A stretch of DNA of 64,000 bases from Candidatus Methylomirabilota bacterium (GCA_046723845.1 JBKOVG010000065.1:2-64001); one strand, 5' to 3'. Counted from the stretch's first letter, positions 18,030 to 42,408 are shown. Numbers and translations: made by a program. Notes: generated by a model from the letters alone, not told the origin.

Positions 18030-18055
18030 GGACGCCGCCCCGGGAGGAGACCACG

Positions 18056-18688: not shown

Positions 18689-18720
18689 TTGCCGAAGCCT
18701 GCAACTTCATCGGCTTCACG

Positions 18721-18816
18721 GGCGTGCCGAGCTACGGCGAGTAAGTTTCACGGGGTCGACGCAGCGAAGAACCGCAGGTAGTTGCCGCCCACGATCCTGG
18801 CGGTCTCCGTCGGCGT
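18721..18816. repeat. Direct repeat copy A (~96 bp, ~90 % identical to 35089-35183)
   Basis: Hand alignment: ggcgtgccgaGctacgGcgagTaagtttcacggg(g)tcgacgc..ccgcaggtagttgccgccca.gatc.tggcggtctccg.cggcgt; 10 differences including 1 indel. Confidence 0.85.
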
Positions 18817-18820
18817 ATCA
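18748..18820 (-). pseudogene. Remnant of the last ~23 codons of a membrane dipeptidase (M19) gene
   Basis: Minus strand reads DTPTETARIVGGNYLRFFAASTP*. Compare the C-terminus of the intact gene 35100..36227: TPAETAKILGGNYLRIFAASTRETSSS*. Confidence 0.7.
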
Positions 18821-18845
18821 CAGGTGAGACAGCCCGGGCGGCTCC

Positions 18846-18874
18846 TTGCCTTCTCCGCACCTGCCCGCTATAGT
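18846..18874 (+). promoter_or_regulatory. Sigma-70-like promoter TTGCCT-17-TATAGT pointing into the cassette array (Pc-like candidate)
   Basis: TTGCCT 18846-18851, exactly 17 nt, TATAGT 18869-18874; 142 nt upstream of the first cassette boundary. Confidence 0.35.
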
Positions 18875-19015
18875 CCCCGCACGTCCCCGCCAGAAGGAGG
18901 GGTGCCACTGGCCCTTGTCCGCTCGATCGCTTCGATTGTCTACGCGCCGGGATATTCATCCTCTTTCACGACAAGCGCCATCCCCTCCGGATGGGCGGGT
19001 TTCAAGATACTTATA

Positions 19016-19024
19016 GTTAGCGAG
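19016..19024 (+). other. Left-most cassette junction (GTTAGCGAG); core site of an attI or degenerate attC
   Basis: Exact reverse complement of CTCGCTAAC (20189-20197), the R'' end of the first attC. Confidence 0.6.
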
Positions 19025-19161
19025 CAGGACTGACGATCACGGCGACTGAACGAAGGTGGGACGTGGATCAAGATGGGCCAAACCGCAAATTCCGGTTTGT
19101 GTATCTTCCGCCCTCGTTTGAGCGGACAGGATGTCCTGTGCTGAGCCGTAGGGGAAAGGAC

Positions 19162-20130
19162 ATGCGGCGGCGCGATTTCATCAGGATTGTTGGGGGTGTG
19201 GCGGCGGTGTGGCCGCTCGTCGCGCGCGGGGAGCAAGCTCGGTTCGTTCGAATCGGCGCGCTCTACATAGGAATCGCGGACGCGGATTCGTTCAAGAAGG
19301 AACTCCGGGAAGGACTGCGCGAGCTCGGCTATGTGGAGGGGCAAAACATCGCATTCGAGTTCCGTTCCGCAGAAGGAAAGCTGGATCAACTTCCTCGGCT
19401 CGCCGCCGAGCTCGTCCGGCTGAAGGTCGACGTGATCGTGGCGCTCTACGTCCCCTGCGCGCTGGCCGCGAAACAAGCGACCCGCGAGATCCCCATCGTC
19501 ATTATCGCGGGTGACCCTGTCGAGACCGGGATCGTGCCCAGCCTGGCTCATCCAGGCGGAAACATCACCGGCGTGTCTCTGATGGCCTCCGCATTGGGTG
19601 GAAAGAGTGTCGAATTGTTCCGCGATATGCTGCCGTCCGCGCGGCGTGTGGGCGTCTTGGGCCACTCCACGAATCCGGTCTTCGCGAAAGCCATGCTCGA
19701 CGAGGTCCTGCGGGCCGGTGGACCGACCGGCATAAGAATACAGCCGGTCGTCATGATCCGCGGACCCGAAGAGGCCGACACCGCTTTTGCGACGATGGTG
19801 AGAGAGCGAGCCGATGCCGCCGTCGTCCAGGGCAGCTTGGCGTTCAAATCGCTGACCGATATGGCCATCAAGTACCGAGTGCCGACGGCCTCGACCACGC
19901 GCTCGTTTGCTGATATCGGAGGCCTGATGGCATTCGGGGCCGACGGGCCCGCCGCGGTTCGGCACGGCGCCACGTTCGTGCATCGGATCTTGGAGGGGAA
20001 GCAGCCGAAGGACATACCTATCGAGCAGCCCACCAAATTCGAGCTGGCCATCAATCTCAAGACTGCCAAGGCAATCGGCCTCAGAATTCCCCAAGCGTTT
20101 CTGCTGCGCGCCGACGCAATCCTCGAATGA
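19162..20130 (+). CDS. ABC-transporter substrate-binding protein (PF04392-like), cassette 1
   Basis: MRRRDFIRIVGGVAAVWPLVARG signal; ..GLRELGYVEGQNIAFEFRSAEGK..LKVDVIVA..IPIV..PGGNITG..EQPTKFELAINLKTAKAIGL.. Confidence 0.85.
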   Translation: MRRRDFIRIVGGVAAVWPLVARGEQARFVRIGALYIGIADADSFKKELREGLRELGYVEGQNIAFEFRSAEGKLDQLPRLAAELVRLKVDVIVALYVPCALAAKQATREIPIVIIAGDPVETGIVPSLAHPGGNITGVSLMASALGGKSVELFRDMLPSARRVGVLGHSTNPVFAKAMLDEVLRAGGPTGIRIQPVVMIRGPEEADTAFATMVRERADAAVVQGSLAFKSLTDMAIKYRVPTASTTRSFADIGGLMAFGADGPAAVRHGATFVHRILEGKQPKDIPIEQPTKFELAINLKTAKAIGLRIPQAFLLRADAILE

Positions 20131-20190
20131 AGCAGCAATTTGATGCGGACTAGCCAGCGCTGCTGAGTGCCGTGTGAGACCGTGGGCTCT

Positions 20191-20250
20191 CGCTAACAAG
20201 CCGCTGGACCCGACGGCTGAGGCAGCCGCGGGTCAGCGCCGGCGTTATGC
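20191..20250 (+). repeat. attC-1 (60 bp)
   Basis: cgctAAC aagccgctggacccg...cgggtcagcgccggc GTTatgc; arms pair (GACCCG/CGGGTC, GCCG/CGGC). Confidence 0.75.
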
Positions 20251-20329
20251 GCACTGAAGGTCGTCTGCCACGGTCGCCAAGCCAGCCAAGTTGGGCGGAC
20301 ACTGACCTCCGCAGGATAGTGGCCTCACA

Positions 20330-23300
20330 ATGAAATGTCCGCGGTGCGAGCACGAAAACGAGTCCAGCGCGAAGTTCTGTGAGGAGTGCGCCGCGCCGCT
20401 CGCGCGGATGTGTGCAAACTGCGGCCGGTCACTCTCCCCGAGGGCCAAGTTTTGCCCTGAGTGCGCCCATCCGACGAGATTGGGGCCGGAGGCTTCCACG
20501 ACCTCGCGCTTCACCTCCCCGGAGGGCTACACCCCGAGGCACCTCGCCGAGAAGATCCTTACGTCCAGGAATGCGGTCGAAGGCGAACGCAAGCAGGTCA
20601 CGGTGGTGTTCGCCGATCTCAAGGGTTCGATGGAGCTGCTCGCCGACCGAGACCCCGAAGATGCCCGCAACCTCCTCGACGCGGTGCTCGAACGCATGAT
20701 GGAGGCCGTCCACCGGTACGAAGGGACGGTCAACCAGGTCATGGGCGACGGAATCATGGCGCTCTTCGGCGCGCCGCTCGCCCACGAGGACCACGCGGTG
20801 CGGGCGTGCTACGCGGCCTTGCGCATGCAGGAATCGGTGAAGCGATACGCCGAGGAGGTGCACCGGACGGCGGGCGTGTCGCTGCACATCCGGGTCGGTG
20901 TGAACTCGGGCGAGGTGGTCGTCCGCTCCATCGGCAGCGACCTCCACATGGACTACACGGCCGTCGGCCAGACGACCCACCTGGCGGCACGGCTGGAGCA
21001 GATGGCGATGCCGGGTTCGATTCTCATCTCGCCCGCGACGCTCAATCTGTCGGAAGGCTACATCATGGTGACGCGACTGGGGGAGCGCCCAGTCAAGGGC
21101 CTGGAACGGCCGATGGAGGTCTTCGAGGTCGTCGGCGCCGGGACGGCGCGCTCGCGGCTGCAGGCCACCGCCGCTCGCGGTCTCACGCGGTTCGTCGGGC
21201 GCAGCGCGGAACTGGAGCAGCTCCGCCAGGCCCTGGAGCGGGCCGGGACGGGGCATGGCCAGGTCGTGGCAGTCGTCGGCGAGCCCGGGGTCGGGAAGTC
21301 CCGCCTCTTCTGGGAGTTCACCCACTCGCATCGCACGCAGGGCTGGCTCCTCGTCGAGAGCAGCTCCGTTTCTTACGGCAAGGCGATGGCGTTTCTGCCG
21401 CTCATCGATCTCCTCCGCGCCTACTTCCAGATCGAGGGTCGCGATGACGAGCGCAAGATCAGCGAGAAGGTAACTGGAAAGCTCTTCTCCTTGGACCGCG
21501 CGCTCGAACCGTCGCTGCCCGGACTGCTGTGGCTTCTCGACGTACCAGTCGACGACCCGCAATGGCAGCGGCTCGACCCTCCGCAGCGCCGCCAGCAAAC
21601 GCTCGAGGGGATCAAGCGATTGCTGCTACGAGAGAGCCAGGTCCAGCCGCTGTTGCTGGTGTTCGAGGACCTGCACTGGATCGACGCTGAGACTCATGCC
21701 CTGCTGGACAGCGTTGTGGAGAGTCTGCCCACCGCCCGGTTGCTGCTCCTGGTGAACTACCGACCGGAATACCAGCACAGCTGGGGCAATAAGACCTACT
21801 ACCGGCAGCTCCGCGTTGACCCCCTTGCGCCCGAGAGCGCCGAGGAACTACTCGGGGGCTTGCTTGGGACCGACGCTCGCCTTCAATCCCTCAAGCGACT
21901 CTTGATCGAGCGGACCGAGGGCAATCCGTTCTTCCTCGAGGAAAGCGTCCGGACGCTTGTCGAGACGAGGGTCCTGGCGGGCGCGCGAGGCGCCTATCAC
22001 CTGGCGAGAGAAACCTCGACGCTGCAAATTCCGGCGACGGCCCAGGCGATCCTGGCTGCGCGCATCGACCGTCTCGCGCCCGAGGACAAACGGCTCCTCC
22101 AGGCCGCCTCTGTCATCGGCAAGGACACGCCCTTCACGCTCCTCCAGGCCATCGCGGAGGAGCCAGAGCAGCAACTCCGCCGGGGCCTCGCGAATCTCCA
22201 AGCCGCCGAGCTCCTCTACGAGGCGCGGCTCTTCCCGGACCTCGAGTACACATTCAAGCACGCGCTGACCCACGACGTCGCCTACGGCAGCCTGCTTCAG
22301 GAGCGACGGCGCGCGCTCCACCGCCAGATCATGGAGACCATCGAGCGGCTCCATCCCGACCGGCTGGCGGAGCACATCGAACAGCTCGCCCACCACGCCT
22401 TCCGGGGCGAGGCGTGGGACAATGCTGTCACGTACCTCCGGCAGGCTGGGGCCAAGGCCTTCGCCCGCTCGGCCAACCGGGAATCGGTGACGTATCTCGA
22501 GCAGGCCCTCAACGCCCTGGATCACCTGCCACAAGATGGCGAGACGGTCGTCCAGGCCATCGATGTTCGGATCGATCTGCGTCATGCGCTGTGGCCGCTC
22601 GGCGAGAACGGTCGGATCCTCAACTATTTGCAGAAGGCCGAAACCATGGCCGAGACGCTCGGCGACCAGGGGCGATTGGCGCGGGTTCTCTCGGCGATGG
22701 GCTATTCATTTTGGATGCTGGGCGACCATGGCCGTGTCGCGACGTCCAACGGGCGTGCCCTGGCGATCGCCACGAGCCTGGGAGACTTCGCTCTCGAGGC
22801 GGCGGCAAACTTCGCGCTCGGGCTCGCTTACCACGGCCTCGGAGACTATCGTCGCGCGACCGACCACCTCACGAGAAACGTCGGCTCGCTCCGAGGCGAG
22901 CGGATGTTCGGTCGGTTCGGAACCGCCGGCGTCACGTCGGTCCTGTCCATCATGGCGCTGGCATGGTGCAATGCCGAGCAGGGCTCTTTCGCGGAAGGCA
23001 TCGGCTTCGGGGAGGAAGCCCTTCGGACCGCCAACGCGCGAGATGACAAGCTCAGTCTCATGTTCGCCGACCTAGGTGTCGGAGACCTCTACCTCGTGCA
23101 GGGGGACCTCGTCCGGGCCATTCCGAGACTCGAGCGTGGCCTGTCGATCTGCCAGACATGGGACTTCCCATCCTGGCTTCCCTGGCTGGCTTCGCGACTG
23201 GGGGCCGCTTACGCCTTGGCCGGTCGTGTGGCCGAGGGCCTGCCGTTGTTGGAGCAGTCGGTGGAGCGAGCCGACGCCATGGGTTGGAAGGCCGACGCTT

Positions 23301-23701
23301 CACGGCTCGCCGCCAGGTTGAGCGAGGCATATCTCGGAGCTGGTCGAATTCAGGAAGCGGCAGAACTGGCCGCCCGTGCCCTCGATCTCGCGGTGGGGCA
23401 GAACGGGCGCGGTGATCAGGCCTGGGCCCTACGCCTGGGTGGCGAGATCGCTTCCGGTAGGGAGCCGGCCGACCTCGAGCAGGCCGAAGACCAGTACCGC
23501 CAAGCGCTCGCCCTCGCCGAGGAGTTGGGGATGCAGCCCCTCGCGGCGCACTGTCACCTTGGGGTCGGCAAGCTGTATCGCCGCGTGGGCAACCGCGCGA
23601 AGGCGGAAGAGCGCCTGAGGACCGTCACCGCGATGTATCGGGAGATGGAGATGGGCTTCTGGATCCAGCACGCCGAGGCAGAGATGAGGGCGCTGGGATG
23701 A
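20330..23701 (+). CDS. Double zinc-ribbon / class III adenylate cyclase / AAA(STAND) ATPase / TPR protein, cassette 2
   Basis: CPRCEHEN..CEEC..CANCG..CPEC; VTVVFADLKGSMEL..VMGDGIMALFGAP; VVAVVGEPGVGKSRL (P-loop); C-terminal TPR-like repeats; 1123 aa. Confidence 0.85.
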   Translation: MKCPRCEHENESSAKFCEECAAPLARMCANCGRSLSPRAKFCPECAHPTRLGPEASTTSRFTSPEGYTPRHLAEKILTSRNAVEGERKQVTVVFADLKGSMELLADRDPEDARNLLDAVLERMMEAVHRYEGTVNQVMGDGIMALFGAPLAHEDHAVRACYAALRMQESVKRYAEEVHRTAGVSLHIRVGVNSGEVVVRSIGSDLHMDYTAVGQTTHLAARLEQMAMPGSILISPATLNLSEGYIMVTRLGERPVKGLERPMEVFEVVGAGTARSRLQATAARGLTRFVGRSAELEQLRQALERAGTGHGQVVAVVGEPGVGKSRLFWEFTHSHRTQGWLLVESSSVSYGKAMAFLPLIDLLRAYFQIEGRDDERKISEKVTGKLFSLDRALEPSLPGLLWLLDVPVDDPQWQRLDPPQRRQQTLEGIKRLLLRESQVQPLLLVFEDLHWIDAETHALLDSVVESLPTARLLLLVNYRPEYQHSWGNKTYYRQLRVDPLAPESAEELLGGLLGTDARLQSLKRLLIERTEGNPFFLEESVRTLVETRVLAGARGAYHLARETSTLQIPATAQAILAARIDRLAPEDKRLLQAASVIGKDTPFTLLQAIAEEPEQQLRRGLANLQAAELLYEARLFPDLEYTFKHALTHDVAYGSLLQERRRALHRQIMETIERLHPDRLAEHIEQLAHHAFRGEAWDNAVTYLRQAGAKAFARSANRESVTYLEQALNALDHLPQDGETVVQAIDVRIDLRHALWPLGENGRILNYLQKAETMAETLGDQGRLARVLSAMGYSFWMLGDHGRVATSNGRALAIATSLGDFALEAAANFALGLAYHGLGDYRRATDHLTRNVGSLRGERMFGRFGTAGVTSVLSIMALAWCNAEQGSFAEGIGFGEEALRTANARDDKLSLMFADLGVGDLYLVQGDLVRAIPRLERGLSICQTWDFPSWLPWLASRLGAAYALAGRVAEGLPLLEQSVERADAMGWKADASRLAARLSEAYLGAGRIQEAAELAARALDLAVGQNGRGDQAWALRLGGEIASGREPADLEQAEDQYRQALALAEELGMQPLAAHCHLGVGKLYRRVGNRAKAEERLRTVTAMYREMEMGFWIQHAEAEMRALG

Positions 23702-23727
23702 CCGACGCGTCGCGAGAGAGCCGGGGC

Positions 23728-23799
23728 GCATAACAGCACGATGAACCTGACAGCGACTTCGCTTCGCTCAGCCGCCGCAGGTTATCGTGAGCGTTCGGC
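23728..23799 (+). repeat. attC-2 (72 bp)
   Basis: gcatAAC agcacgatgaacctg...caggttatcgtgagc GTTcggc. GCGCATAAC (23726-23734) is the exact reverse complement of GTTATGCGC (20244-20252). Confidence 0.8.
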
Positions 23800-23840
23800 G
23801 GACACTCTAGTCATGAGAGCAGGTCAGAGGATAGGCGCAG

Positions 23841-24083
23841 ATGTTCGACGCGGTGATTCAGACCGTACTCTCCCAAGGCCAGCCAAGCTCCGGCGATAAC
23901 CTGCTCGGGTTCTCGATCGATGCCGACCACTATGTGGCCGAGGGTGGCGCGCTGGTGAACGTGGACGTCCGCCGCAGCGACCGACCGGACTGCTTAATCG
24001 ATGTACGTGCGACAGTCGCCGATCACGTTCAAACCCTGCAGGATGTTGCTTTAGCGTTGCGGGGAGCATGGGTGGAATGGTGA
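23841..24083 (+). CDS. Hypothetical 80-aa ORF (cassette 3)
   Basis: ORF only; no recognisable motif; abuts the NMO fragment. Confidence 0.3.
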   Translation: MFDAVIQTVLSQGQPSSGDNLLGFSIDADHYVAEGGALVNVDVRRSDRPDCLIDVRATVADHVQTLQDVALALRGAWVEW

Positions 24084-24640
24084 TTACTCCCGCCGTTGTC
24101 GATGCTGTGCGTGCGGTCGCCCCAGGCTCGTCAGCGCCACCGGTGGTCGCGGCAGGTGGAATAGCAGACGGCCGGGGCCTCGCGGCCGCACTGATGCTCG
24201 GCGCAGAAGGTGTTCTCGTCGGCACGCCGTTCCTCGCGACCGACGAGGCACCGGTACCCTCGGCGTGGAAGTCGGCGATTTGCGCGTCGACCGAGGTTGA
24301 TACGGTCTATACGCGGGTTGCGAATCTTGTGGCGCGGCCGACTTGGGCGCCGGTCGCGCCGAGTCGCGTGCTGCGGACCGGCGCGGTTACGGCCTGGCTT
24401 GGTCGCGAGGCGGAACTCGACGCGCTCCCGCCAGCCGAGCGCGAGACGATCGCCGCGCGTTGGGTGCAGGCGCGGATGGAGGGACGCACGGACGACATGG
24501 AAGTGATTGCGGGGCAGGACTGCGGGCTGATCCACGAGATCTTTCCGGCTGCGGAGGTGGTGAGAAGGATCGTGGAGGAGGCGGAGCAAGTCCTCGGGCG
24601 GTGGTGCCCCGCCGGCCACAACGGACCGCGAAGTGCGTGA
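24068..24640 (+). pseudogene. Nitronate monooxygenase (NMO/2-nitropropane dioxygenase) C-terminal fragment
   Basis: PVVAAGGIADGRGLAAALMLGAEGVLVGTPFLATDE is the C-terminal half of the FMN TIM barrel. The N-terminal ~150 aa are absent. Confidence 0.65.
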
Positions 24641-24744
24641 CCGCGTCTGCCAGATCGCCCGCTGGATTCGACCGCCTGATCTGCCCCGCAGGACAGGAAC
24701 CAGCGGTCGTCGATCCAGGGCGTCTGGGCGGTCGTCATGAAAGC

Positions 24745-24816
24745 GCCGAACAAGGCAGTCGAGCGGCCGGCGGCTCGCATTCGCTCGGGCGCCGCCGCTC
24801 ACTGCCAGCGTTCGTC
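24745..24816 (+). repeat. attC-3 (72 bp)
   Basis: gccgAAC aaggcagtcgagcgg...ccgctcactgccagc GTTcgtc. Shares 16-nt loop ggctcgcattcgctcg with attC-11. Confidence 0.8.
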
Positions 24817-24909
24817 GCACCAGGAGACGGCAAGCAGATACCGCAGTCGATGCTACGAAGTCCCAAGCACATTTACACCAAAAGGCTAGAAGAGAGAGCG
24901 AGGCTTCCT

Positions 24910-26117
24910 ATGACCATCGGTGCGCTGATCCAAGGCCAATGCGACTCACGTTTCACAGCAGTGCGTGAGGCGTTCGCGGAGAATTTCGCAAAACGCGCAG
25001 AAGTGGGTGCCGCAGTCTCCGTTTATGTGAACGGCAAACCAGTCGTGGACCTCTGGGGCGGCTACGCCAACGCTGCCAGGACTCGGCCCTGGGAGCAGAA
25101 CACGCTTGTGAGTGTTGCGTCTACCACCAAGGGCATGGTCGCTCTTTGCGCTCACATGCTCGTCGAGCGCGGACTCCTCGATCTCGATGCGCCAGTGGCT
25201 CGCTACTGGCCAGAATTCTCGCAGGCCGACAAGGCGCAGATCCCCGTGCGCTGGCTTCTGAGCCATCGGGCTGGTTTACCAGCCATCCGACGAGATCTGC
25301 CCGCCGAGTCGCTCTACGACTGGCATGCCTTCACCGCGGCACTAGCGGAAACCTCTCCCTGGTGGACGCCGGGAAGCCAGCACGGCTATCACGCGAGGAC
25401 TTTCGGCCACCTGGTGGGTGAAGTCATTCGGCGGATCAGCGGCGCGAGCGTGGGCCAGTTCCTTCGCGCCGAAGTGGCGGGGCCGCTGGGTGCCGACTGC
25501 TTTATTGGCCTTCCGGAGGCAGAACATGCGCGGGCTGCCGAAATCCTTCCCGACCTACCACCTCTCCCTGGCGACGAGACTATATGGGACGTGATCAGGG
25601 GAGACCCATCGTCCATGGCGGCCCGCGCGTTTTCCAATCCACCAGGCGGCCCAGAGATGAGGAATACTCGAGCCTGGCGCGCGGCCGAGATTCCATCAAG
25701 CAACGGCCACACGACCGCAAGAGCCCTGGCCCGCCTCTATGGTGCGCTCGCTGATGGCGGGACGCTCGACACCGTGCACCTCCTCGACCCAGCCACGATC
25801 GATGCGGCGATCGTAGAACAATCGTCTGGCCTCGATGCGATTCTCCCGTTCGCGACGCGGTTTGGACTCGGGTTCATGCTGACGATGCCGGGCAGGAACG
25901 GACAGCCGGGGCACTCGTCCCGCCGTTCGGTCCCAATCCGCGCGCCTTCGGGCACCCGGGGGCCGGGGGCTCTATCGGCTTTGCCGACTTGGACGGCCGA
26001 CTTGGTTTTGGCTACGTGATGAACCAGTTTCAGACTGGCACGGCACGGAATCCCGATCTCCGTTGGGTCTCCCTCGTCGAGGCAGCCTATGCCTCGCTCG
26101 GCGCAAGACAGGGTTAA
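24910..26117 (+). pseudogene. Serine hydrolase (class C beta-lactamase/esterase family) with a frameshift near 25890-25925, cassette 4
   Basis: SVASTTKGM (S-x-x-K). After ..GLGFMLTMPG the conserved C-terminus PFGPNPRAFGHPGAGGSIGFADLDGRLGFGYVMNQ..* continues in another frame, ending at TAA 26115-26117. Confidence 0.7.
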
Positions 26118-26153
26118 TTCGTTTTGTCATCAAAATCCCGCATCGTGGCGGGC

Positions 26154-26226
26154 GTCGAACTTCGCGCTCCAGCGGACCAGGAGCTCGCGTTGCTCGCTCC
26201 CCGGCCGCTGAGCGTGAACGTTCGGC
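26154..26226 (+). repeat. attC-4 (73 bp)
   Basis: gtcgAAC ttcgcgctccagcgg...ccgctgagcgtgaac GTTcggc. Confidence 0.75.
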
Positions 26227-26256
26227 GGACAAGTTGAGCCAAGGCAGGAGCGAGCG

Positions 26257-27081: not shown

Positions 27082-27117
27082 CGTGTTCATCCTCCATAAC
27101 CCCGAGCTTGGCGAGCC

Positions 27118-27175
27118 GCCGAACAACAGGCTCGAGCGGACCAACTATGCCGGCCGCTCAGCCTGAGCGTTCGGC
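27118..27175 (+). repeat. attC-5 (58 bp)
   Basis: gccgAAC aacaggctcgagcgg accaactatgccgg ccgctcagcctgagc GTTcggc. Confidence 0.8.
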
Positions 27176-27197
27176 GCACCGGGGAAGCGATCAACAG

Positions 27198-28244: not shown

Positions 28245-28332
28245 TCGCTCGGCCGGCTTTGGTTCTCCTGCCGAGTGGCCTTCTCAGCGTCTTCGTGGCA
28301 GGTGACGGCGCAGCTTGCCAAGCGATGGGGGC

Positions 28333-28395
28333 GTCGAACGTTTCAGTGGAGCGGACCCGCCCAGAGCGGCGGGCCGCTCACCATGAGCGTTGGGC
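28333..28395 (+). repeat. attC-6 (63 bp)
   Basis: gtcgAAC gtttcagtggagcgg acccgcccagagcggcggg ccgctcaccatgagc GTTgggc. Confidence 0.8.
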
Positions 28396-28475
28396 GCACC
28401 TGATCGCCTGACATGCTGGCGACTCCAGAGGCGAGGAGGTCCACGGCTTATGGGCAACACTACGGTGGTGGCGGC

Positions 28476-29468
28476 GTGATGATCATCCACGTTGCGACGG
28501 CGGTCGCGCTCGCCCTCGGCCTCGCTGCCGCGCCGACGCTCGCCGACGCGCAGCCGACGAAGAGCCATCGACTGTGTGTTCTGGGGGCTGACTCCAGCTT
28601 GTCGCAGTGGGGGGCAACGCGGTACAACGCGTTTCTCGAGGGCCTCAAGGACTTCGGTTACGTGGAGGGACGCAACATCGTCATCGATTTCCTGTCCGCT
28701 GACGGGGACTATCAAAGATTTCCCACCCTTGCCGCCGAGTGCGTGCGCCTCAAGCCGGACATCATCATCGCGTATACCACGCCCGGCAGCCTGGCCGCCA
28801 AGAAGGCAACCAGCACCATCCCGATCGTCATGGGGCCAGTAGGGGATGCGGTCGGTACCGGAATCGTGGCCAGCTTGGCGCGCCCCGGCGGAAACATCAC
28901 GGGCCAGACCCTCATCGCGTCGGGGCTCAGTGTCAAACGCTTGCAGCTGCTGAAGCAAGCGGTACCCGCGCTCTCCCGGGTTGCTGTCCTGTCACATGCG
29001 ACAGACCCGGTTGGAGCGGTCCAGGTACAGGAGATGGAACAAGCGGCGGGCCAGCTGGGACTGCGCCTGCTGATCCATCGCATTCGGGCCCCGGATGACC
29101 TTCCCGGCGCGGTCAACGCCGCCGCTAAAGACGGTGCGGAAGGACTTATCACGACGATCGAGACCATCTTCCTTATTAACCGCGCCCGTGTGATCGACCT
29201 CGCGGCGAGGCAGCGGTTACCGGCAATGTATCCGTCGCGAGACTTCGCGGATTCCGGAGGCTTGCTGAGTTATGGTCCGAGAATGTCGAGCCTCTACCGC
29301 CAAGCGGCGGTCTACGTGGACAAGATCTTCAAGGGCGCCAAGCCTGCTGACTTGCCGATCCAACAGCCGACCGAGTTCGAGCTGGTCATCAATCTGAACA
29401 CCGCGAAGACTCTTGGCCTGACGATCCCGCAATCGCTGTTGCTGCGGGTGGACCAAGTCATTGAGTGA
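28476..29468 (+). CDS. ABC-transporter substrate-binding protein (PF04392-like), cassette 7
   Basis: Signal VMIIHVATAVALALGLAAAPTLADA; ..GLKDFGYVEGRNIVIDFLSADGD..IPIVMG..RPGGNITG..QQPTEFELVINLNTAKTLGL..VDQVIE*. Confidence 0.8.
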   Translation: MMIIHVATAVALALGLAAAPTLADAQPTKSHRLCVLGADSSLSQWGATRYNAFLEGLKDFGYVEGRNIVIDFLSADGDYQRFPTLAAECVRLKPDIIIAYTTPGSLAAKKATSTIPIVMGPVGDAVGTGIVASLARPGGNITGQTLIASGLSVKRLQLLKQAVPALSRVAVLSHATDPVGAVQVQEMEQAAGQLGLRLLIHRIRAPDDLPGAVNAAAKDGAEGLITTIETIFLINRARVIDLAARQRLPAMYPSRDFADSGGLLSYGPRMSSLYRQAAVYVDKIFKGAKPADLPIQQPTEFELVINLNTAKTLGLTIPQSLLLRVDQVIE

Positions 29469-29477
29469 TCGCTGGCC

Positions 29478-29549
29478 GCCCAACATCACGCTGCAACGGT
29501 CCGGGTGCTCACGATGCTCGCACCCGGCCGCTGAGCGTGCGCGTTCGGC
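29478..29549 (+). repeat. attC-7 (72 bp)
   Basis: gcccAAC atcacgctgcaacggtccgggtg...cacccggccgctgagcgtgcgc GTTcggc. Confidence 0.8.
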
Positions 29550-29588
29550 GCCTTGAGCCGAGCGGACGATCGGGAGTAAGGTAAGGCA

Positions 29589-29801
29589 ATGGCTGAGGCG
29601 ATCGTAACCTGCTCGCCGGATATCCTGAGCGGCACGCCCGTATTCGCTGGAACGCGAGTTCCGGTCCAAGCGCTCATCGACTACCTCGAGGGCGGCGAGA
29701 CGATCGGCGACTTCCTCACGGGGTTTCCGACCGTCAGGCGGGAGCAGGTCGTGGCCTTCCTCGAGGAGGCCACGGCGCGAATGACTCCCAAGGCGTCGTG
29801 A
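29589..29801 (+). CDS. DUF433-family antitoxin-like protein, cassette 8
   Basis: CSPDILSGTPVFAGTRVPVQALIDYLEGGETIGDFLTGFPTV; GTGA start/stop overlap with the next gene. Confidence 0.8.
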   Translation: MAEAIVTCSPDILSGTPVFAGTRVPVQALIDYLEGGETIGDFLTGFPTVRREQVVAFLEEATARMTPKAS

Positions 29802-30130
29802 GGGTGCTCCTCGACGAGTGTGTCGACCGGCGCCTCGCGGCGGACATCCAAGGGCACGACGTGAAGACGGTGCCAGACGCGGGCTGGGCTGCGCTGAAGA
29901 ACGGGGACCTCCTGAACCGAGCCCAGCACGAGTTCGACGCGTTCGTCACGACCGACCGCAACCTTCCCTTCCAGCAGGACCTGTCCCGCTTCTCCATCGC
30001 CGTCGTCGTGCTGCGCGCACAATCCAATCGTGTTGTCGATCTGCGCCGCCTGATTCCCCAGCTGCTCACCGCCCTGCCTGTCGCCAAGCGTGGCGCGGCC
30101 ACATGGGTAGGCGCCGAACAACGCACTTGA
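29798..30130 (+). CDS. DUF5615-family PIN-like toxin candidate, cassette 8
   Basis: MRVLLDECVDRRLA..GHDV..FVTTDRNL..; 4-nt overlap with the DUF433 gene; its 3' end runs into attC-8. Confidence 0.75.
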   Translation: MRVLLDECVDRRLAADIQGHDVKTVPDAGWAALKNGDLLNRAQHEFDAFVTTDRNLPFQQDLSRFSIAVVVLRAQSNRVVDLRRLIPQLLTALPVAKRGAATWVGAEQRT

Positions 30131-30170
30131 GCGGACACGCTTCGCGCGCCGCTCACCGCGGGCGTTGGAC
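30113..30170 (+). repeat. attC-8 (58 bp)
   Basis: gccgAAC aacgcacttgagcgg acacgcttcgcgcg ccgctcaccgcgggc GTTggac. AGGCGCCGAAC is the exact reverse complement of GTTCGGCGCCT at attC-7 (11 nt). Confidence 0.85.
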
Positions 30171-30285
30171 GGACAAGAGAACACGCACCTGGCTCTCGGG
30201 TTTCGTTTTGCGGGCCGAGGTGTCCAGTGTAAGGCTCAACCGTATTCCACGAGAGGCGGCTCTGGCAACCTGAGAGGAGGACGAC

Positions 30286-30573
30286 ATGGCGTACGGGGTT
30301 GTGCATCACTTTCCAGGCGGGACGAGGGAACAGTACGAGGCATCAATCGCAGCGGTGCACCCCAGCAGAGACAGCCTTCCGAAGGGACAGATCTTCCACG
30401 CGGCTGGCGCGTCGCCTGGTGGCTGGACGATCGTGGCAGTCCACGAGTCCAAGGAGAGTTGGGAGCGGTTCCGCGACGGCATCCTGATGCCTCAGCTGCA
30501 ACAGGGCGTCAAAGGCGGCTTCACCACGCCACCGCAGGAGACCGTCTTCGAGGTCCATAACCTGCAGCGGTAA
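30286..30573 (+). CDS. Hypothetical 95-aa protein, cassette 9
   Basis: GAGAGGAGG SD; MAYGVVHHFPGGTREQYEASIAAVHP..; small alpha/beta-like, no firm family call. Confidence 0.55.
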   Translation: MAYGVVHHFPGGTREQYEASIAAVHPSRDSLPKGQIFHAAGASPGGWTIVAVHESKESWERFRDGILMPQLQQGVKGGFTTPPQETVFEVHNLQR

Positions 30574-30730
30574 GAGGCTGCGAAGCGTTCGCGGCTCTCG
30601 TTCGGAGCGGCGGCCCCAGCGGGCGGGAGGACGGGTTCGGGTATGCCTCAGTGCTCGTGATGGGTTCGAGTGCGGCCTCTTGCGTGGCTTCGGCGCGTGC
30701 GAGCCGGGTGTGGTGTTCGTTCCACGAGCC

Positions 30731-30827
30731 GTCCAACCGCGCGCTGCACCCGACGGCCCGCGCTCGGGTGCTCTGCTGGGCTTAGGTTAGAATCTGCGCG
30801 GGCCGTGGCTGAGCGCGAGCGTTAGGC
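30731..30827 (+). repeat. attC-9 (97 bp)
   Basis: gtccAAC cgcgcgctgcacccgacggcccgcg...cgcgggccgtggctgagcgcgagc GTTaggc. CCGTCCAAC is the exact reverse complement of GTTGGACGG at attC-8. Confidence 0.75.
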
Positions 30828-30842
30828 GTACAGGGGATTTTT

Positions 30843-31847
30843 ATGACCGCAGAGGCTCCGGATTGGAGCGATGTTACCAGCTACTTTATCAGCTACTTCT
30901 CTGCAGTCGCGATCCTGGCCGCTATGCAACTCGATCTCTTCACGCCGCTTCGGCATGGCCCACGGACGTGTGACGAACTTGCCACGGATCTGCGAGTTGA
31001 TCCCCGTCGCCTGCGAATGCTGCTGGTTCCTCTGGCCAGTACTAAGCTCATCACCCTAAACGAGGGCCGCGTGGCGAACTCCGCGCTCGCGGCCGAATTC
31101 CTCGTCCGGGGGCAGCCACGATACATGGGCGGAAGTCACGAACTCTACTCGGATCTGTTCGCCTCCGTACTCCCCACTGCGCAGTCCATCCGAGCTGGCA
31201 CACCACAAGCTGAACATGACTGGGACAGTCTTCCCGACGAGCAGCTACGAGCAGTGCTGCGCGGGTTGAATGCTGGCGCCACAGCTCAAGGGCAATTGAT
31301 CGCCCGGGATCATGACTTTTCACGGTTTGAGACGATTCTCGACATCGGTGGCGGCGGTGCCGGCTTCGCCATGGGCGCCTGTCAGGTCTGTCCGAACCTC
31401 ACGGCGCAGGTGATCGAACTGCCGAGAGTCGCTCGGATCGCGCAGGAGCTTATCGATGCGGCGGGGCTGGCTTCTCGCATCCGAGCCGTTAGCCATAACA
31501 TTGCCGCTGCGCCGCTGCCGGCTCCTCAGCCCGCTGCGGTGGTACGCAACCTCCTCCAGGTGTTATCGCCCGAACGCGCTCAGCGCGTTCTCGAGAACGT
31601 TGGCCGTTCCCTTCGACCGGGTGGAGAGATATTCGTTATCGGCCAGATACTTGACGACGATCTCGCTGGTCCGCCGAGCGCGATAGCGTTCAATCTTGTG
31701 TTCCTCAATATTTACAGGGATGGCGAAGCGCATTCGGAATCCGCTTACCGACGGTGGCTTGAGGTTGCAGGCTTCGTGGACGTCCAGAGGATGCCACTCG
31801 TTGGTAGCTCGGGCATGAGCCTGATGACGGGACACTGGCCCGGATGA
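30843..31847 (+). CDS. O-methyltransferase (Methyltransf_2 type with N-terminal dimerisation/wHTH domain), cassette 10
   Basis: ILDIGGGGAGFAMGACQVCPNLTAQVIELPRV..; 334 aa. Confidence 0.8.
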   Translation: MTAEAPDWSDVTSYFISYFSAVAILAAMQLDLFTPLRHGPRTCDELATDLRVDPRRLRMLLVPLASTKLITLNEGRVANSALAAEFLVRGQPRYMGGSHELYSDLFASVLPTAQSIRAGTPQAEHDWDSLPDEQLRAVLRGLNAGATAQGQLIARDHDFSRFETILDIGGGGAGFAMGACQVCPNLTAQVIELPRVARIAQELIDAAGLASRIRAVSHNIAAAPLPAPQPAAVVRNLLQVLSPERAQRVLENVGRSLRPGGEIFVIGQILDDDLAGPPSAIAFNLVFLNIYRDGEAHSESAYRRWLEVAGFVDVQRMPLVGSSGMSLMTGHWPG

Positions 31848-31884
31848 AGGTTGTCTCGCCAGCTGCTTCGAGGAAATCTGCGCC

Positions 31885-31944
31885 GTCCAACTTCAGGCTT
31901 GAGCGGCCCGGCGCCACGCCGGCCGCTCAGCCCAAGCGTTGGGC
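31885..31944 (+). repeat. attC-10 (60 bp)
   Basis: gtccAAC ttcaggcttgagcgg cccggcgccacgccgg ccgctcagcccaagc GTTgggc. Confidence 0.8.
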
Positions 31945-32007
31945 AGACGGATGCCTGTGGCAATCACGTGCCGCCGGTGTGACGGGCATGGGGGAAGAGG
32001 GACAGAC

Positions 32008-32703
32008 GTGAAGCTCGCGGCCAGCCGCGTCACCGCAGCGGCAGTTCTTCTCCTGCTTGCCGCGTCACTCGCCGCGGCTGCCGACCAGCCCCGAGAGAAA
32101 GTGACACGGGTAGGCTATCTGTCGCCTGGTTCGCCTTCCGACCCGGTGAGGTTGCGCCGATTCGAAGCGTTCCGCCAAGGTCTGCGCGAGCTCGGTTATG
32201 TGGAAGGCCAGAACGTCGCTATCGAATCCCGATGGGCCGAGGGCAACTATGATCGGTACCCTGCCCTCGCGGCCGACCTGGTCCGTGAGAAAATGAACGT
32301 CATCGTGGCGGTGGGCGGGGCAGCGACCCAGGCGGCCCAACGAGCGACCAGGACAATCCCGATCGTCATGTCGGTCGTTCTCGATCCCGTGGGAAGCGGA
32401 CTCGTCGCCAGCCTTGCGCGTCCCGAAGGGAACATCACAGGGCTGTCGCTCATGGCCCCTGACATCATCGGGAAACAGTTACAAGTGCTCAGGGAAGTGG
32501 TGCCGTCGGTATCTCGGGTGGCCGTCCTCTGGAATCCGGCCAATCCGGGGAGCGCGCCCCAGTTGCGAGAGGTGGAGGCTACAGGTCGGGTCTTGAAGAT
32601 GCACCTTCAAATTCTTCAGGCGCGGGCCCCCCAGGAGATCGATAGCGCCTTCGCGGCGATGACGCGAGAGCGGGCGGGCGCGGTAGTGATTCTTGCGAAG
32701 TGA
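32008..32703 (+). pseudogene. ABC-transporter substrate-binding protein (PF04392-like), 3'-truncated (~75 C-terminal aa missing), cassette 11
   Basis: ..GLRELGYVEGQNVAIESRWAEGN..IPIVM..RPEGNITG.. Stops at ..AGAVVILAK* without the conserved ..GGLMSYG..EQPTKFEL..VIE tail. Confidence 0.65.
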
Positions 32704-32742
32704 GCGTGGTTATCGCCACTCCATTCCCCGATCGGCACATCC

Positions 32743-32813
32743 GCCGAACAATGGACTGGAGCGGACGCTGGCTCGCATTCGCTCGCCACGGCCGCTCACT
32801 GCGAGCGTTCGCC
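32743..32813 (+). repeat. attC-11 (71 bp)
   Basis: gccgAAC aatggactggagcgg...ccgctcactgcgagc GTTcgcc; near-twin of attC-3. Confidence 0.8.
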
Positions 32814-32852
32814 GACAGACGCAGCTGAACAGATTCAATTGGAGGTGACTGG

Positions 32853-33836
32853 ATGACGCTGAAGTGTCTCGGTGTGCTCCTCGCTTTGAGCATTCTCGGG
32901 CCGCTGCTGACCGCCGAGGCTCAGGTGACGGCAACGACAGCGAAGATCGGAGTGCTCTCCTCTCAATCCCACGAAACGAGCAAAGCGGCCTGGACCGCAT
33001 TCCGTCAGGGACTCCGCGACTTCGGCTGGGAAGATGGACGAAACATCGTCATCGAGGTTCGATTTGCTGACGGTCATATCGACCGACTCCGCGGTTTGGC
33101 TGAGGAGTTGCTGAAACACGACGTAAGGCTCATCGTCGCCCAGAACTCGCCAGGAGCCCGCGCAGCCATCGACGCGACGAGGACCGTGCCGATCGTGATG
33201 GTCGAGGTCGGTGATCCCGTCGCCACCGGATTCGTGACGAACCTGGCCCGGCCGGGCGGGAACGTCACGGGCCTGACGAACATGGCGCGCGATTTGACTT
33301 CGAAGCGACTCCAACTGCTCAAGGAAGCCGTGCCGAGCGCCACACGCATTGCCGTGATCATGGACCCAGGCGATCCGGTCGTCCCACCGCAGTGGCGTGA
33401 CGCCCAGTCCGCGGCACAGAGGCTTGGTCTTGAGCTCCAGCGGCTGGAGGTGCGGAATGTCGATGATCTCCGGCGGGCATTCCAGACGGCAGTCGCCGGC
33501 AAAGCTGAGGCCGTGCTGCGACTAGCCGACCCGCTGTCCATAGTGCAAGGAACGGAGACCGCGCAACTGGCCATAAAGCATCATCTGCCACTCATGGTCA
33601 GGGCTCGCACGGAGATCGAAATGGGTGGGTTGATCTCGTATTATGCGGACCCTCTCGACTACCACCGTCGGGCCGCATTCTACGTCGATCGAATTCTCAA
33701 AGGCGCCAAGCCGGGCGATCTGCCGATCGAGCAACCCACACGATTCGAGCTGCTCATAAACCTAAAGACCGCGCACGCGCTTGGGATCACGATCCCACCG
33801 TCGCTGGTGATACGAGCAGATGAGGTGTTCCAATGA
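32853..33836 (+). CDS. ABC-transporter substrate-binding protein (PF04392-like), cassette 12
   Basis: Signal MTLKCLGVLLALSILGPLLTAEA; ..GLRDFGWEDGRNIVIEVRFADGH..VPIVM..RPGGNVTG..EQPTRFELLINLKTAHALGI.. Confidence 0.85.
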   Translation: MTLKCLGVLLALSILGPLLTAEAQVTATTAKIGVLSSQSHETSKAAWTAFRQGLRDFGWEDGRNIVIEVRFADGHIDRLRGLAEELLKHDVRLIVAQNSPGARAAIDATRTVPIVMVEVGDPVATGFVTNLARPGGNVTGLTNMARDLTSKRLQLLKEAVPSATRIAVIMDPGDPVVPPQWRDAQSAAQRLGLELQRLEVRNVDDLRRAFQTAVAGKAEAVLRLADPLSIVQGTETAQLAIKHHLPLMVRARTEIEMGGLISYYADPLDYHRRAAFYVDRILKGAKPGDLPIEQPTRFELLINLKTAHALGITIPPSLVIRADEVFQ

Positions 33837-33892
33837 CGATCATAGCGGCTCCTATGCGAAAGATCGGCATGGAAAACCCCGCCGAGTATCTC

Positions 33893-33977
33893 CGGCAACT
33901 TTTCCGCGCCGAGCGACCGCGATCTCTTGCGCATCGCTGAGTGGATTCGATGAACGCGAGCCGAGCGAACGTTCGGG
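33893..33977 (+). repeat. attC-12 (85 bp, degenerate; arms pair poorly)
   Basis: cggcAAC ttttccgcgccgagcg...cgcgagccgagcgaac GTTcggg; central hairpin GCGAT/ATCGC. Assigned mainly by position and the conserved gagcgaacGTTcgg end. Confidence 0.4.
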
Positions 33978-34531
33978 ACAGCTTGCTGGAGGCCGCCTTA
34001 TGGTTCGTGCAAGCGGCTGCTCAGCTATCAGGGGTTCAGTGCATCGCGTTGATCGGCTCGATCCTCAGCAACCGCCAAAGCCCGAAAGACGTCGACCTAC
34101 TGGTGTACGTTGCCGACGATGCCGATCTGGCACCGCTGGCGTCCACGGCGCGCCGGCTGCAAGGGCGCCTCCAGAGCCACAACCGCGGTGCCGACGTATT
34201 CTTGGCAGACGAGCAACGCCAATACTTGGGTCGGACGTGTTCCTGGAAGTTGTGCCAGCCCGGGATTCGCGCCTCATGTGATGCACTACACTGCGGCCGG
34301 CGGCCGCATCTTCATGACGACCTTGCCACGATTCGACTCCCTGACTCGCTCATCGCGGCACCGCCCCTCGAGCTCTGGCCCATAGTCGTGCGGAGGTGCC
34401 AGGTACCTGCCGATGTCGAGAGGCTCGTGAGCCGTCTTCACGAACAGCACAACAACGCAGTCGCGCAGACCGCTGGCTCGCGTTCGCCCGCCGCGGCTGC
34501 TCACCGCGAGCGTTGGTCGGCACTGCAGTAG
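33941..34531 (+). CDS. Pol-beta-superfamily nucleotidyltransferase with Cys4 cluster, cassette 13 (start probably TTG 33983, inside the cassette)
   Basis: IALIGSILSNRQSPKDVDLLVYV (GS..D.D NTase motif); C-x4-C-x7-C-x4-C (CSWKLCQPGIRASCDALHC). The last ~30 codons are translation of attC-13. Confidence 0.6.
   Translation: MDSMNASRANVRDSLLEAALWFVQAAAQLSGVQCIALIGSILSNRQSPKDVDLLVYVADDADLAPLASTARRLQGRLQSHNRGADVFLADEQRQYLGRTCSWKLCQPGIRASCDALHCGRRPHLHDDLATIRLPDSLIAAPPLELWPIVVRRCQVPADVERLVSRLHEQHNNAVAQTAGSRSPAAAAHRERWSALQ
34439..34518 (+). repeat. attC-13 (72-80 bp; R'' either 34439-34445 or 34447-34453)
   Basis: cacgAAC agcacaacaacgcagtcgcgcagaccgc...gcggctgctcaccgcgagc GTTggtc. Confidence 0.65.
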
Positions 34532-34556
34532 TTGAGGTGACGGCCGGGAGGGGACT

Positions 34557-34993
34557 GTGTCGCTAACGATGACCAAGCAGGAACGCGAAACGTTTCTGGC
34601 CGAGCTTCACGTCGGAATCATCAGTATTCCTGAAAAAGGGCGAGGACCGCTCACCGTGCCGATCTGGTACTCGTACGAACCTGGCGGCGAGCTACGGGTC
34701 GTAACCGCCAGGACTTCGCGGAAAGCTCAGCTCCTCCAGCATGCTGGCAGGTTCAGTCTCTGTGTACAGACGGAGACATGGCCGTATAAGTACGTCAGTG
34801 TCGAGGGACCGGTCGTCGCCATCGAGCCAGCAGATGTTGAGCGCGACCGCCGGCCTCTCGCTCCCGTTACTTGGGCGTGCCAAGGGGTGACCGATACATC
34901 GAGAAGACACGGGGAGAACCGGGCCACGTTACGAACCTGCTTGTTCGCATGCTGCCGAGACGATGGCTCACGGTGAACTACGCGAAGGCATAG
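34557..34993 (+). pseudogene. Pyridoxamine 5'-phosphate oxidase (PPOX/F420-binding) family protein with a frameshift near 34850-34870, cassette 14
   Basis: ..LHVGIISIPEKGRGPLTVPIWY..RVVTARTSRKAQLL.. The conserved tail ..RYLGVPRGDRYIEKTRGEPGHVTNLLVRMLPRRWLTVNYAKA* continues in another frame (TAG 34991-34993). Confidence 0.65.
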
Positions 34994-35011
34994 GGACCGC
35001 CATGACCGTCC

Positions 35012-35081
35012 GTCCAACAAGCCGCTTCAACAGCCCAGGGTTCGCGCCGCCCACCTCAGCTGCTGAGCGCCGGCGTTGCGG
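35012..35081 (+). repeat. attC-14 (70 bp), last site of the array
   Basis: gtccAAC aagccgcttcaacagc...gctgctgagcgccggc GTTgcgg; ends 7 nt before direct repeat copy B. Confidence 0.75.
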
Positions 35082-35088
35082 TGAGAAC

Positions 35089-35183
35089 GGCGTGCCGACC
35101 TACGACGAGGAAGTTTCACGGGTCGACGCGGCAAAGATCCGCAGGTAGTTGCCGCCCAGGATCTTGGCGGTCTCCGCCGGCGT
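35089..35183. repeat. Direct repeat copy B (3' end plus 11 nt downstream of the intact dipeptidase gene)
   Basis: ~90 % identical to 18721-18816 (hand alignment). Confidence 0.85.
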
Positions 35184-36227: not shown

Positions 36228-36240
36228 GGCCAGCTCCCGA

Positions 36241-42197: not shown

Positions 42198-42201
42198 GGG
42201 A

Positions 42202-42408
42202 ATGGACAAGCGCGAGAAAGTCCAGGCTGTTTCCTTTGACGAAGCCCAAACTATCTTCGGGGACAGGCTAGCGAGAACTGACCCGGAGCCGGATGATTCG
42301 GAAGGTGAAGAGCGATTCACAGCAATTGGACTGGCTCTTTCAGTTGGAGTGATTACGAAGGCGCAGTTCACGACCGGAAGGCTTCTCGCGTCGGTGCATG
42401 CGGGCTAA
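42202..42408 (+). CDS. Small ORF with weak BrnT/DUF497-like toxin similarity (possibly degenerate)
   Basis: VSFDEAQTIFGD..D..DSEGEERFTAIG resembles the DUF497 core (HGVSFEEA..VF.D..D..HS..EER..iG). Both ends are atypical. Low-GC segment. Confidence 0.35.
   Translation: MDKREKVQAVSFDEAQTIFGDRLARTDPEPDDSEGEERFTAIGLALSVGVITKAQFTTGRLLASVHAG

Follow-up and report, generated by a model that had tools for sequence, protein, structure and literature searches.

How chromosomal integrons reach the loci at which they reside, and how clusters of attC sites without an integrase gene arise, are open questions. Both are raised by a locus of a soil Candidatus Methylomirabilota (Rokubacteria) bacterium, contained in a 64,000-nucleotide (nt) stretch of DNA (GCA_046723845.1 JBKOVG010000065.1:2-64001) that is called the window below. 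A block of gene cassettes within it (18817-35088) is bracketed by two direct repeats, copy A and copy B, derived from the 3' end of an M19 membrane dipeptidase gene. A first-pass annotation, made from the sequence alone, saw here an island integrated site-specifically into the end of a gene and proposed that the entire array was acquired, or can be lost, as one unit. Our analysis bears this out in part and leads to a different history. The element itself is very probably an integron. With good, if lesser, confidence we read the block as a sedentary chromosomal integron of the Methylomirabilota, with its integrase gene intI co-directional with the cassettes, which was inserted together with a duplication of the gene end and has since decayed.

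A duplicated gene end brackets the block

Copy A (18721-18816, 96 nt) and copy B (35089-35183, 95 nt) align over 96 columns and differ by 9 mismatches and a one-base indel; their identity of 89.6% agrees with the ~90% first estimated. The match between the copies has an E-value of 2e-31 when searched against the whole window, and the next match of that query has an E-value of at least 0.15. Copy B is the true end of the dipeptidase gene, as had been annotated: the protein matches the Pfam profile Peptidase_M19 as far as position 318 of 319, and homologues conserve the C-terminal motif GFTPAETAKIVGGNYLRIF. Copy A is an orphan. It encodes ..TPTETARIVGGNYLRFFAASTP* in a reading frame disrupted by the 1-nt indel, and no upstream part of a dipeptidase gene adjoins it.

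The insertion point lies between the dipeptidase codons for GF and TPAE, 28 codons before the gene end (break-site sequence ..CGGCG|TGAAG..; dipeptidase site ..CTCCGCCGGCGTGAAGCC..). The stretch encoded by copy B, GF|TPAETAKI.GGNYLRIF.., is the best-conserved C-terminal stretch among the homologues whose C-termini were compared; since copy B completes the gene, this conserved C-terminus was kept. Thus the locus shows direct repeats from the 3' end of the target gene at both borders and an intact dipeptidase gene, that is, the geometry of an insertion into a gene end with the gene preserved, as the first-pass annotation had recognized. The drop in G+C content that it had listed as a check is also present: values are 0.69-0.74 outside the block and 0.61-0.67 inside it (19-35 kb, 1-kb resolution), and G+C at third codon positions is ~0.9 in the left-flank backbone genes versus 0.73-0.83 in the genes of the block.

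The block is the remnant of a complete integron

We spotted attC-like hairpins by eye and by repeat search, aligned them and built them into a covariance model. A scan of all 64 kb with filters off returned exactly 13 attC sites, scoring 47.6-76.6 bits, all on the plus strand and all between 20191 and 35081. No convincing site was found elsewhere in the 64 kb, where the next plus-strand match scored 17.6 bits. The R''-L''/L'-R' structure is well formed in the 13 sites: 86.8% of the cells pair, compared with ~32% in controls whose 3' partners were slid, and 10 pairs have changed on both sides. A strict regular expression (RYYYAAC..GTTRRRY) catches 2 of the 13 sites, most of which read GTTCGGC. 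The six bases past each attC crossover belong to the next cassette, and we therefore compared the first bases of each cassette with its own R'': they are complementary at 82 of 91 positions (permutation p=0.00015, variable positions). All cassette genes lie on the plus strand. A cassette array with paired attC sites, as expected of a complete integron, is thus present.

The array does not begin at copy A. The R'' of cassette 1, CGCTAAC, predicts that this cassette starts at G|TTAGCG (heptamer 19016-19022), and the junction found there, GTTAGCG, is its exact complement at 7 of 7 positions. It follows that the 200 nt between 18817 and 19016 are not cassette DNA. The first-pass description of 18817-35088 as exactly the cassette block therefore holds from 19017 onwards; what precedes is a remnant of the integron platform, whose left boundary is identical in alignments with the relatives L102, L121 and L122.

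The platform remnant ends in a site that acts, on sequence grounds, like attI (18998-19018). We scanned metagenome contigs with the 21-mer GGTTTCAAGATACTTATAGTT, which ends at this junction, and found it in 24 contigs, all of 59-69% G+C and each with a different first cassette. All 24 are conserved up to ..TTATAG|TT and unrelated beyond. At least 12 of them carry attC sites downstream of the 21-mer in the same orientation, and 11 have integron-integrase matches upstream of it on the same strand. The integrase open reading frames (ORFs) of L094 and L102 score 462 and 433 bits against TIGR02249 'integron integrase' (cut-off 265). In L102, L094 and L121, intI is transcribed towards attI and the cassettes.

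In the window itself no intI gene is left. Compared with L102, a 144-nt deletion after 18955 took the start codon of intI and a second deletion of ~1009 nt after 18997 reached attI, so that a 42-nt internal scrap of the gene survives between them. The N-terminus of IntI was sought in the ORF 18732-18959 on the minus strand and is absent from it. Upstream of the former start, 18846-18874 is the sole promoter-like match within 18600-19300. This site, predicted from the consensus alone, is kept in L102, L121 and L122 and now stands ~140 nt upstream of attI. Because intI has been lost, the integron of the window now scores as an attC cluster without integrase, with 13 attC sites where two suffice and no integrase gene nearby.

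Among the 24 contigs with the attI motif, another 11 (L086, L089, L091, L092, L096, L097, L100, L101, L104, L106 and L108) gave no IntI match at E<=1e-3, each with at least 600 nt of sequence upstream of the motif; in L106, 50 nt separate it from the end of an upstream sigma-54 activator gene. Loss of the integrase with retention of attI looks common in the Methylomirabilota as judged from these contigs, in a sample that a motif-based search biases towards loci that have kept attI. The near-identical contigs L108 and L089 differ by a 606-nt attC-containing segment (L108 1373-1978) that starts ~160 nt past attI; this difference is no simple insertion at the attI crossover. No flanking duplication was found around the integron of L108, the left border of whose platform lies off the contig.

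Relatives share the junctions and differ in their cassettes

Both borders recur in relatives. On the right, L001 (99.9% nt identity to the window), L002 (93%), L124 (91%) and L123 (86%) carry at least part of the terminal, PNPOx-like cassette, attC13, the sequence GTTG(C/T)GGTGAGAAC and then copy B. On the left, L120, L121 and L122 (95-96% identity) carry the DUF4286 gene that flanks the block, the spacer and copy A, and L121 and L122 run on from copy A through the platform start into an open intI. The same junctions are therefore found in seven independent assemblies from different samples, three of them bearing copy A. Public sequencing runs were compared over 17800-20400 and 17600-36400, and Logan contigs from these runs span 18620-18851 and 35007-35412, which confirms both junctions.

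Loci without the block are also found, in more distant relatives. In L005, just 6 nt separate the dipeptidase gene from the DUF4286 gene, which is the empty site that the first-pass annotation had predicted; L003 and L004 are empty too, with the dipeptidase gene adjoining a hydrolase gene. At the left site, none of the relatives examined has another complete dipeptidase gene, the finding that would have pointed to simple decay of a paralogue. The left flank is native. The DUF4286 protein has orthologues of 86-97% amino-acid identity, the start of the spacer, TGATTG(C/G)CG, also occurs at the empty site of L005, and the left flank of L102 is 93% identical to the window up to the DUF4286 stop codon. 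A search of genome contigs with the left-flank hydrolase yielded one useful locus, L006, and two Rokubacteria matches, L007 and L012, that are not syntenic.

Lineages with the same outer junctions and the same distal PNPOx cassette have different inner cassettes. In L124, cassette 9 of the window adjoins the terminal cassette, L002 differs within the PNPOx cassette, and L110 and L114, of the L006-type lineage described below, differ from one another. These data argue that the array was assembled in place and was not acquired as a unit, contrary to the first-pass proposal.

The integrase gene is found in three states: open in L121 and L122, frameshifted in L102 and L105, and deleted to 42 nt in the window. 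The frameshift of L102 (~4080-4100) and L105 (~170-190) lies at the same A/G run, GAAAAGG (codons ..RHYSRRTE|K|AYVAW..). The gene of L107 is shifted at GAAAAGG too and may have a different indel; L094, L121 and L122 are in frame. A hotspot of mutation or of sequencing errors could account for this, as could a regulated shift. L121 (2423-3250) and L122 (1128-1559) are near-identical from the flank across copy A and into intI, up to about codon 55. Past RTEKAYV, intI of L121 is an allele with only ~70% protein identity to that of L102, which suggests that recombination has exchanged the gene, and perhaps the array, of L121, a process reported in Xanthomonas arboricola.

Both repeat copies descend from one lineage

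The two copies of the repeat share a derived state. CCGCAGG is present in all A copies (window, L121 and L122) and all B copies (window, L001, L002, L123 and L124), and both empty sites read CCTGAGG at this position. Where A and B differ, the outgroup state is in most cases retained by one of the two. Taken together, these patterns indicate that A and B are descendants of a single sequence of this lineage that have diverged at the locus; copy B, then, is no import from a distant host. Copy A is contiguous with the native DUF4286 flank, the start of whose spacer is shared with L005, and we therefore regard it as the displaced original end of the gene and copy B as the end that now lies beyond attI. 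The divergence between A and B is 7-10%, that among the carriers is 5-9% (12% for L123), and the empty-site lineages stand at ~12%. The divergence of the repeat hence fits between that of the carriers and the distance to the empty lineages. A neighbour-joining tree of the dipeptidase body places the four carriers together and L005 outside, with a bootstrap of 41%.

A proposed history of the locus

We infer a single ancient insertion. In the ancestor, the DUF4286 and dipeptidase genes would have lain tail to tail. A platform of ~1.6 kb, consisting of the intI upstream region, intI and attI, would have entered the dipeptidase gene between GF and TPAE and left two copies of its last 96 bp, A orphaned beside the native flank and B just past attI. 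The simplest and best-fitting source of the duplication would be one reciprocal crossover of the chromosome with a circle bearing both the platform and a copy of the gene end, a step we put forward tentatively, as plausible and somewhat short of probable. Such a crossover could have been Campbell-type homologous recombination or a site-specific event of the attP x attB type. The platform-end sequence would be CGGCGTATCACAGG, and the predicted circle junction is the end of copy B joined to ATCACAGG.

By integron logic, TTGCGGTGAGAAC, which follows the last attC crossover, would be the original right half of attI, and a cassette-free platform, with attI joined straight to this distal sequence, would read CTTATAGTTGCGGTGAGAAC. 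If TTGCGGTGAGAAC is the old half of attI, the unit that entered first would have been the ~1.6-kb platform and not the present 16 kb. Cassettes would then have been added one by one at attI, pushing TTGCGGTGAGAAC and the oldest cassette (PNPOx) distally towards copy B, and different lineages would have built different arrays in place. Decay of intI would have come last, from the open gene to the frameshifted one and then through two deletions down to the 42-nt scrap.

Several observations weigh against this history. In L102 and L105, copy A is reduced to its last 13 nt (TCTCCGCCGGCGT), and the rest is ~95 nt of unexplained sequence. These ~95 nt have no match among the other sequences compared and do not form an alternative dipeptidase tail; their reading as a degenerate attC was unsupported by the covariance model. 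In the common L006-type lineage (L110-L119, 91% identity), the DUF4286 gene is followed by cassette-like genes, with the first attC 5.3 kb downstream, and copy A, intI and attI are missing from the locus, which points either to a different history at the same site or to a heavily eroded platform end. Resolution of the dipeptidase tree is poor: a rival grouping that joins L005 to L123 and L124 has 40% bootstrap, and site patterns conflict, so that one gain without loss or transfer is not proven; loss of the unit, or its transfer by flanking homology, is possible at this locus. Besides IntI the unit has no recombinase, and platform integration of this kind is not a known activity of IntI. At the break site, ..CGGCG|TGAAG.., the sequence departs from the GWT consensus published for secondary sites of IntI. 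Against loss of the unit, in turn, speaks that the empty sites lack the CCGCAGG state of all A and B copies, and no such loss was seen in the data. Finally, neither the joint 18816>35184 nor a circle was present in four public runs, at a depth of ~3x and with short assembler contigs that give this search low power. Of the first-pass claim that the block was acquired or can be lost as one unit, the first half is not supported, and loss through the 96-bp repeats remains conceivable in principle.

In the L006-type lineage, the 5.3 kb ahead of the first attC (L110 10634-15990, and likewise in L111-L119) encode a small secreted protein, a cyclase paralogue of 1109 amino acids and a hydrolase, after which a normal array begins.

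Alternative origins of the duplication

The footprint of the insertion is that of a textbook island, with imperfect direct repeats from a gene 3' end, empty sites and a compositional break. An island carrying a phage-type integrase (attP x attB) could accordingly have entered the 3' end of the dipeptidase gene with the integron as cargo, the rest of the island being deleted later. We consider this unlikely. No space is left for island genes, since copy A runs directly into the intI upstream region, 139 nt ahead of the start of intI, and 7 nt, the distance first annotated, separate the end of the last attC (35081) from copy B (35089). Both junctions are the same across the seven independent carrier assemblies. 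The ORFs scanned, those of the block and its immediate surroundings, include none with a recombinase domain, and neither border has an integrase of its own other than IntI. Moreover, the two repeat copies share their lineage of origin, which is not that of a foreign host. The bare array of the first-pass annotation gives way to a whole integron, with intI and attI beside copy A and no island-type integrase.

About equally improbable is that the junction is the work of IntI itself, acting on a secondary site within the dipeptidase gene (CGCCGGCG|T) and excising, then re-inserting, a circle of platform, array and gene end. The break site shares a 9-nt identity, CGCCGGCGT, with the R' ends of attC1 and attC13, the two junctions resemble each other (CGGCGT..GGTGAGA at both), and IntI has been published to insert DNA at genome sites other than att. 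In opposition to this, the site reads GTG and not GWT, a simple IntI insertion gives no duplication, two rare secondary-site events would be required and the short similarity of the junctions may be due to chance.

A bolder version, which we rate slightly lower still, would make the intI-attI platform a mobile unit that circularises with ~100 bp of gene end and re-integrates in naive relatives at CGCCGGCG|T, a site that would mimic the R' end of the platform's own attC sites. If this doubtful idea were true, whole integrons could spread by platform mobility, repairing the gene that they interrupt and needing no transposon or plasmid.

Decay of a second dipeptidase gene at the left site, of which the last 96 nt survived, would also yield an orphan 3' fragment. 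It is very improbable, since the left copy exceeds these 96 nt in none of the relatives, its end coincides exactly with the boundary of the platform in the window, L121 and L122, the empty sites hold a single dipeptidase gene, and derived states absent from the outgroups are common to A and B. A chimeric contig that joined an array to the dipeptidase locus through the repeat, conceivable for metagenome-like data in which repeats can misjoin contigs, is practically discounted by the recurrence of both junctions in independent assemblies from different samples at 86-99.9% identity and in contigs from public runs. A transposon-type target duplication is ruled out by the length (96 bp) and 10% divergence of the repeat and by the lack of a transposase among the genes of the block; no inverted ends were noticed on reading the junction sequences, no inverted-repeat search having been run.

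Gene content of the array and its surroundings

The features of the locus are listed in Table 1. Five of the 13 cassettes encode paralogous binding proteins of family PF04392 (60-75% nt identity in conserved stretches), one of them truncated, and cassettes of this type also occur in the arrays of L086, L096, L098 and L110. The cassette pool of the Methylomirabilota thus seems rich in orphan binding proteins. Two cassettes, 3 (C-terminal half) and 11 (N-terminal two thirds), hold just part of a gene. In cassette 12, two unrelated ORFs follow each other without an attC between them and R'' fits the cassette start poorly (4 of 7 positions); it may represent two cassettes fused through loss of an attC. 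The DUF6932 part of this cassette is also present in L002. Toxin-antitoxin pairs are reported to stabilise large chromosomal integrons, and the overlapping DUF433 and DUF5615 genes of cassette 8 look like such a pair. The long 5' leader of cassette 1 contains, between attI and the ORF start, a terminator-like hairpin with a T-rich tail (19079-19099). Exact-sequence look-ups of the cassette 1 protein and of the DUF4286 protein returned no match, and neither tRNA genes nor Rfam family matches were found in the window.

Beyond the block, a second dip in G+C content (0.61) at 42200-42850 covers two small ORFs, one for a 68-residue protein with a weak BrnT-toxin-like match and one for a DUF6941 protein of 144 residues. 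It may be a small inserted module.

Table 1. Coordinates of the integron remnant, its cassettes and the flanking genes in the window (aa, amino acids).
Feature	Position	Strand	Description
DUF4286 gene	18056..18688	+	two-domain DUF4286/EthD-like protein, 210 aa (Pfam DUF4286); left-flank backbone
Native spacer	18689..18720		32 nt between DUF4286 stop codon and copy A
Copy A	18721..18816	-	orphan dipeptidase 3' end: last 28 codons and 11 nt downstream
Platform left end	18817..18955	+	139 nt of intI upstream region, begins ATCACAGGTGAGAC
Promoter-like site	18846..18874	+	TTGCCT-17-TATAGT, upstream of former intI start; consensus match
intI scrap	18956..18997	+	42 nt, internal; codes ..ILFHDKRHPLRMGG; compare L122 IntI ..YILFHDKRHPLRMGGPEV
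attI core	18998..19018	+	GGTTTCAAGATACTTATAG|TT; crossover between 19016 and 19017
Cassette 1	19017..20244	+	ABC_sub_bind periplasmic binding protein (PF04392), ORF 19162-20130; attC1 20191-20250, 47.6 bits
Cassette 2	20245..23793	+	zinc-ribbon/adenylate cyclase/AAA_16/TPR protein, 1123 aa, ORF 20330-23701; attC2 23728-23799
Cassette 3	23794..24810	+	nitronate monooxygenase C-terminal fragment (profile 182-331 of 331), ORF 24068-24640; attC3 24745-24816
Cassette 4	24811..26220	+	beta-lactamase-fold serine hydrolase, ORF ~24847-26019; attC4 26154-26226
Cassette 5	26221..27169	+	S-adenosylmethionine (SAM) methyltransferase, ORF 26257-27081; attC5 27118-27175
Cassette 6	27170..28389	+	ABC_sub_bind protein, ORF 27180-28244; attC6 28333-28395
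Cassette 7	28390..29543	+	ABC_sub_bind protein, ORF 28413-29468; attC7 29478-29549
Cassette 8	29544..30164	+	DUF433 (29589-29801) and overlapping DUF5615 (29798-30130); attC8 30113-30170
Cassette 9	30165..30821	+	95-aa protein, no family, ORF 30286-30573; attC9 30731-30827
Cassette 10	30822..31938	+	O-methyltransferase, ORF 30843-31847; attC10 31885-31944
Cassette 11	31939..32807	+	truncated ABC_sub_bind protein (profile 11-190 of 293), ORF 31939-32703; attC11 32743-32813
Cassette 12	32808..34512	+	ABC_sub_bind (32853-33836) and weak DUF6932 match, below Pfam cut-off (33941-34531); attC12 34447-34518
Cassette 13 (distal)	34513..35075	+	weak PNPOx-like match, below Pfam cut-off, ORF 34557-34976; attC13 35012-35081
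TTGCGGTGAGAAC	35076..35088	+	sequence past last attC crossover; 35082-35088 (7 nt) separate attC13 from copy B
Copy B	35089..35183	-	functional dipeptidase 3' end, codes TPAETAKILGGNYLRIFAASTRETSSS*, and 11 nt past the stop codon
M19 membrane dipeptidase gene	35100..36227	-	intact, 375 aa; Pfam PF01244, E=4e-46; orthologues exist

Significance and comparison with known systems

The locus provides a dated natural example in which an empty site, a 96-bp gene-preserving footprint and a graded series of intI decay can be set side by side. It shows an integrase-less state arising by internal deletion, and illustrates that a cluster of attC sites with no integrase can be an integron decapitated not long ago, one that would escape automatic searches for pseudogenes. 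The 21-nt attI signature finds integrons of an uncultivated soil phylum even after intI has been lost. Sedentary integrons with a decaying intI are already known, and what is described here is a member from an uncultivated phylum with an unusual insertion footprint. Its interest is thus moderate, for students of integron origins, and it is not categorically new. Judged by titles and the openings of abstracts, the papers that literature searches surfaced appear to contain no description of integrons in this phylum, and we know of no integron described with both a known empty site and a duplicated target-gene end such as the 96 bp seen here.

Four known systems invite comparison. The Xanthomonas integron downstream of ilvD occupies a fixed locus, was acquired ancestrally and inherited vertically, and its intI is often frameshifted, truncated or lost (10.1101/2025.06.18.660453). 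The present integron resembles it in its single fixed locus, its lineage-specific arrays and its decaying intI. It differs in its Methylomirabilota host, in its co-directional intI and in the 96-bp duplication of a gene 3' end that brackets the insertion; the Xanthomonas paper makes no mention of one, with 0 occurrences of the terms 'direct repeat' and 'duplication' (10.1101/2025.06.18.660453).

An attC-site cluster without an integron-integrase (CALIN; Cury et al. 2016, PMC4889954) is what an automatic tool would call the window, with its 13 attC sites and no integrase gene. The origin of CALINs is debated, and 95% of them are reported not to be near a recognisable intI pseudogene. Here, in contrast, sister strains document the former complete integron, of which a 42-nt scrap of intI and an intact attI remain.

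An inverted arrangement of intI is known in Treponema denticola, Geobacter and the Chlorobium group, and integrons with this orientation were reportedly treated by Boucher and colleagues in 2007. As in those integrons, intI is read towards attI and the cassettes; the integron described here belongs to a different phylum and has its own attI sequence.

A parallel to the footprint is found outside integrons. The elements e14 and phage 21 in the icd gene of E. coli carry a replacement 3' end of their target gene, so that, as at our locus, an insertion in a gene 3' end is accompanied by a second, slightly different copy of that end, the orphan lying at the other border. Those elements encode a lambda-type integrase and excise, whereas the present locus has had IntI as its only recombinase, has shown no excision and bears two copies from one lineage.

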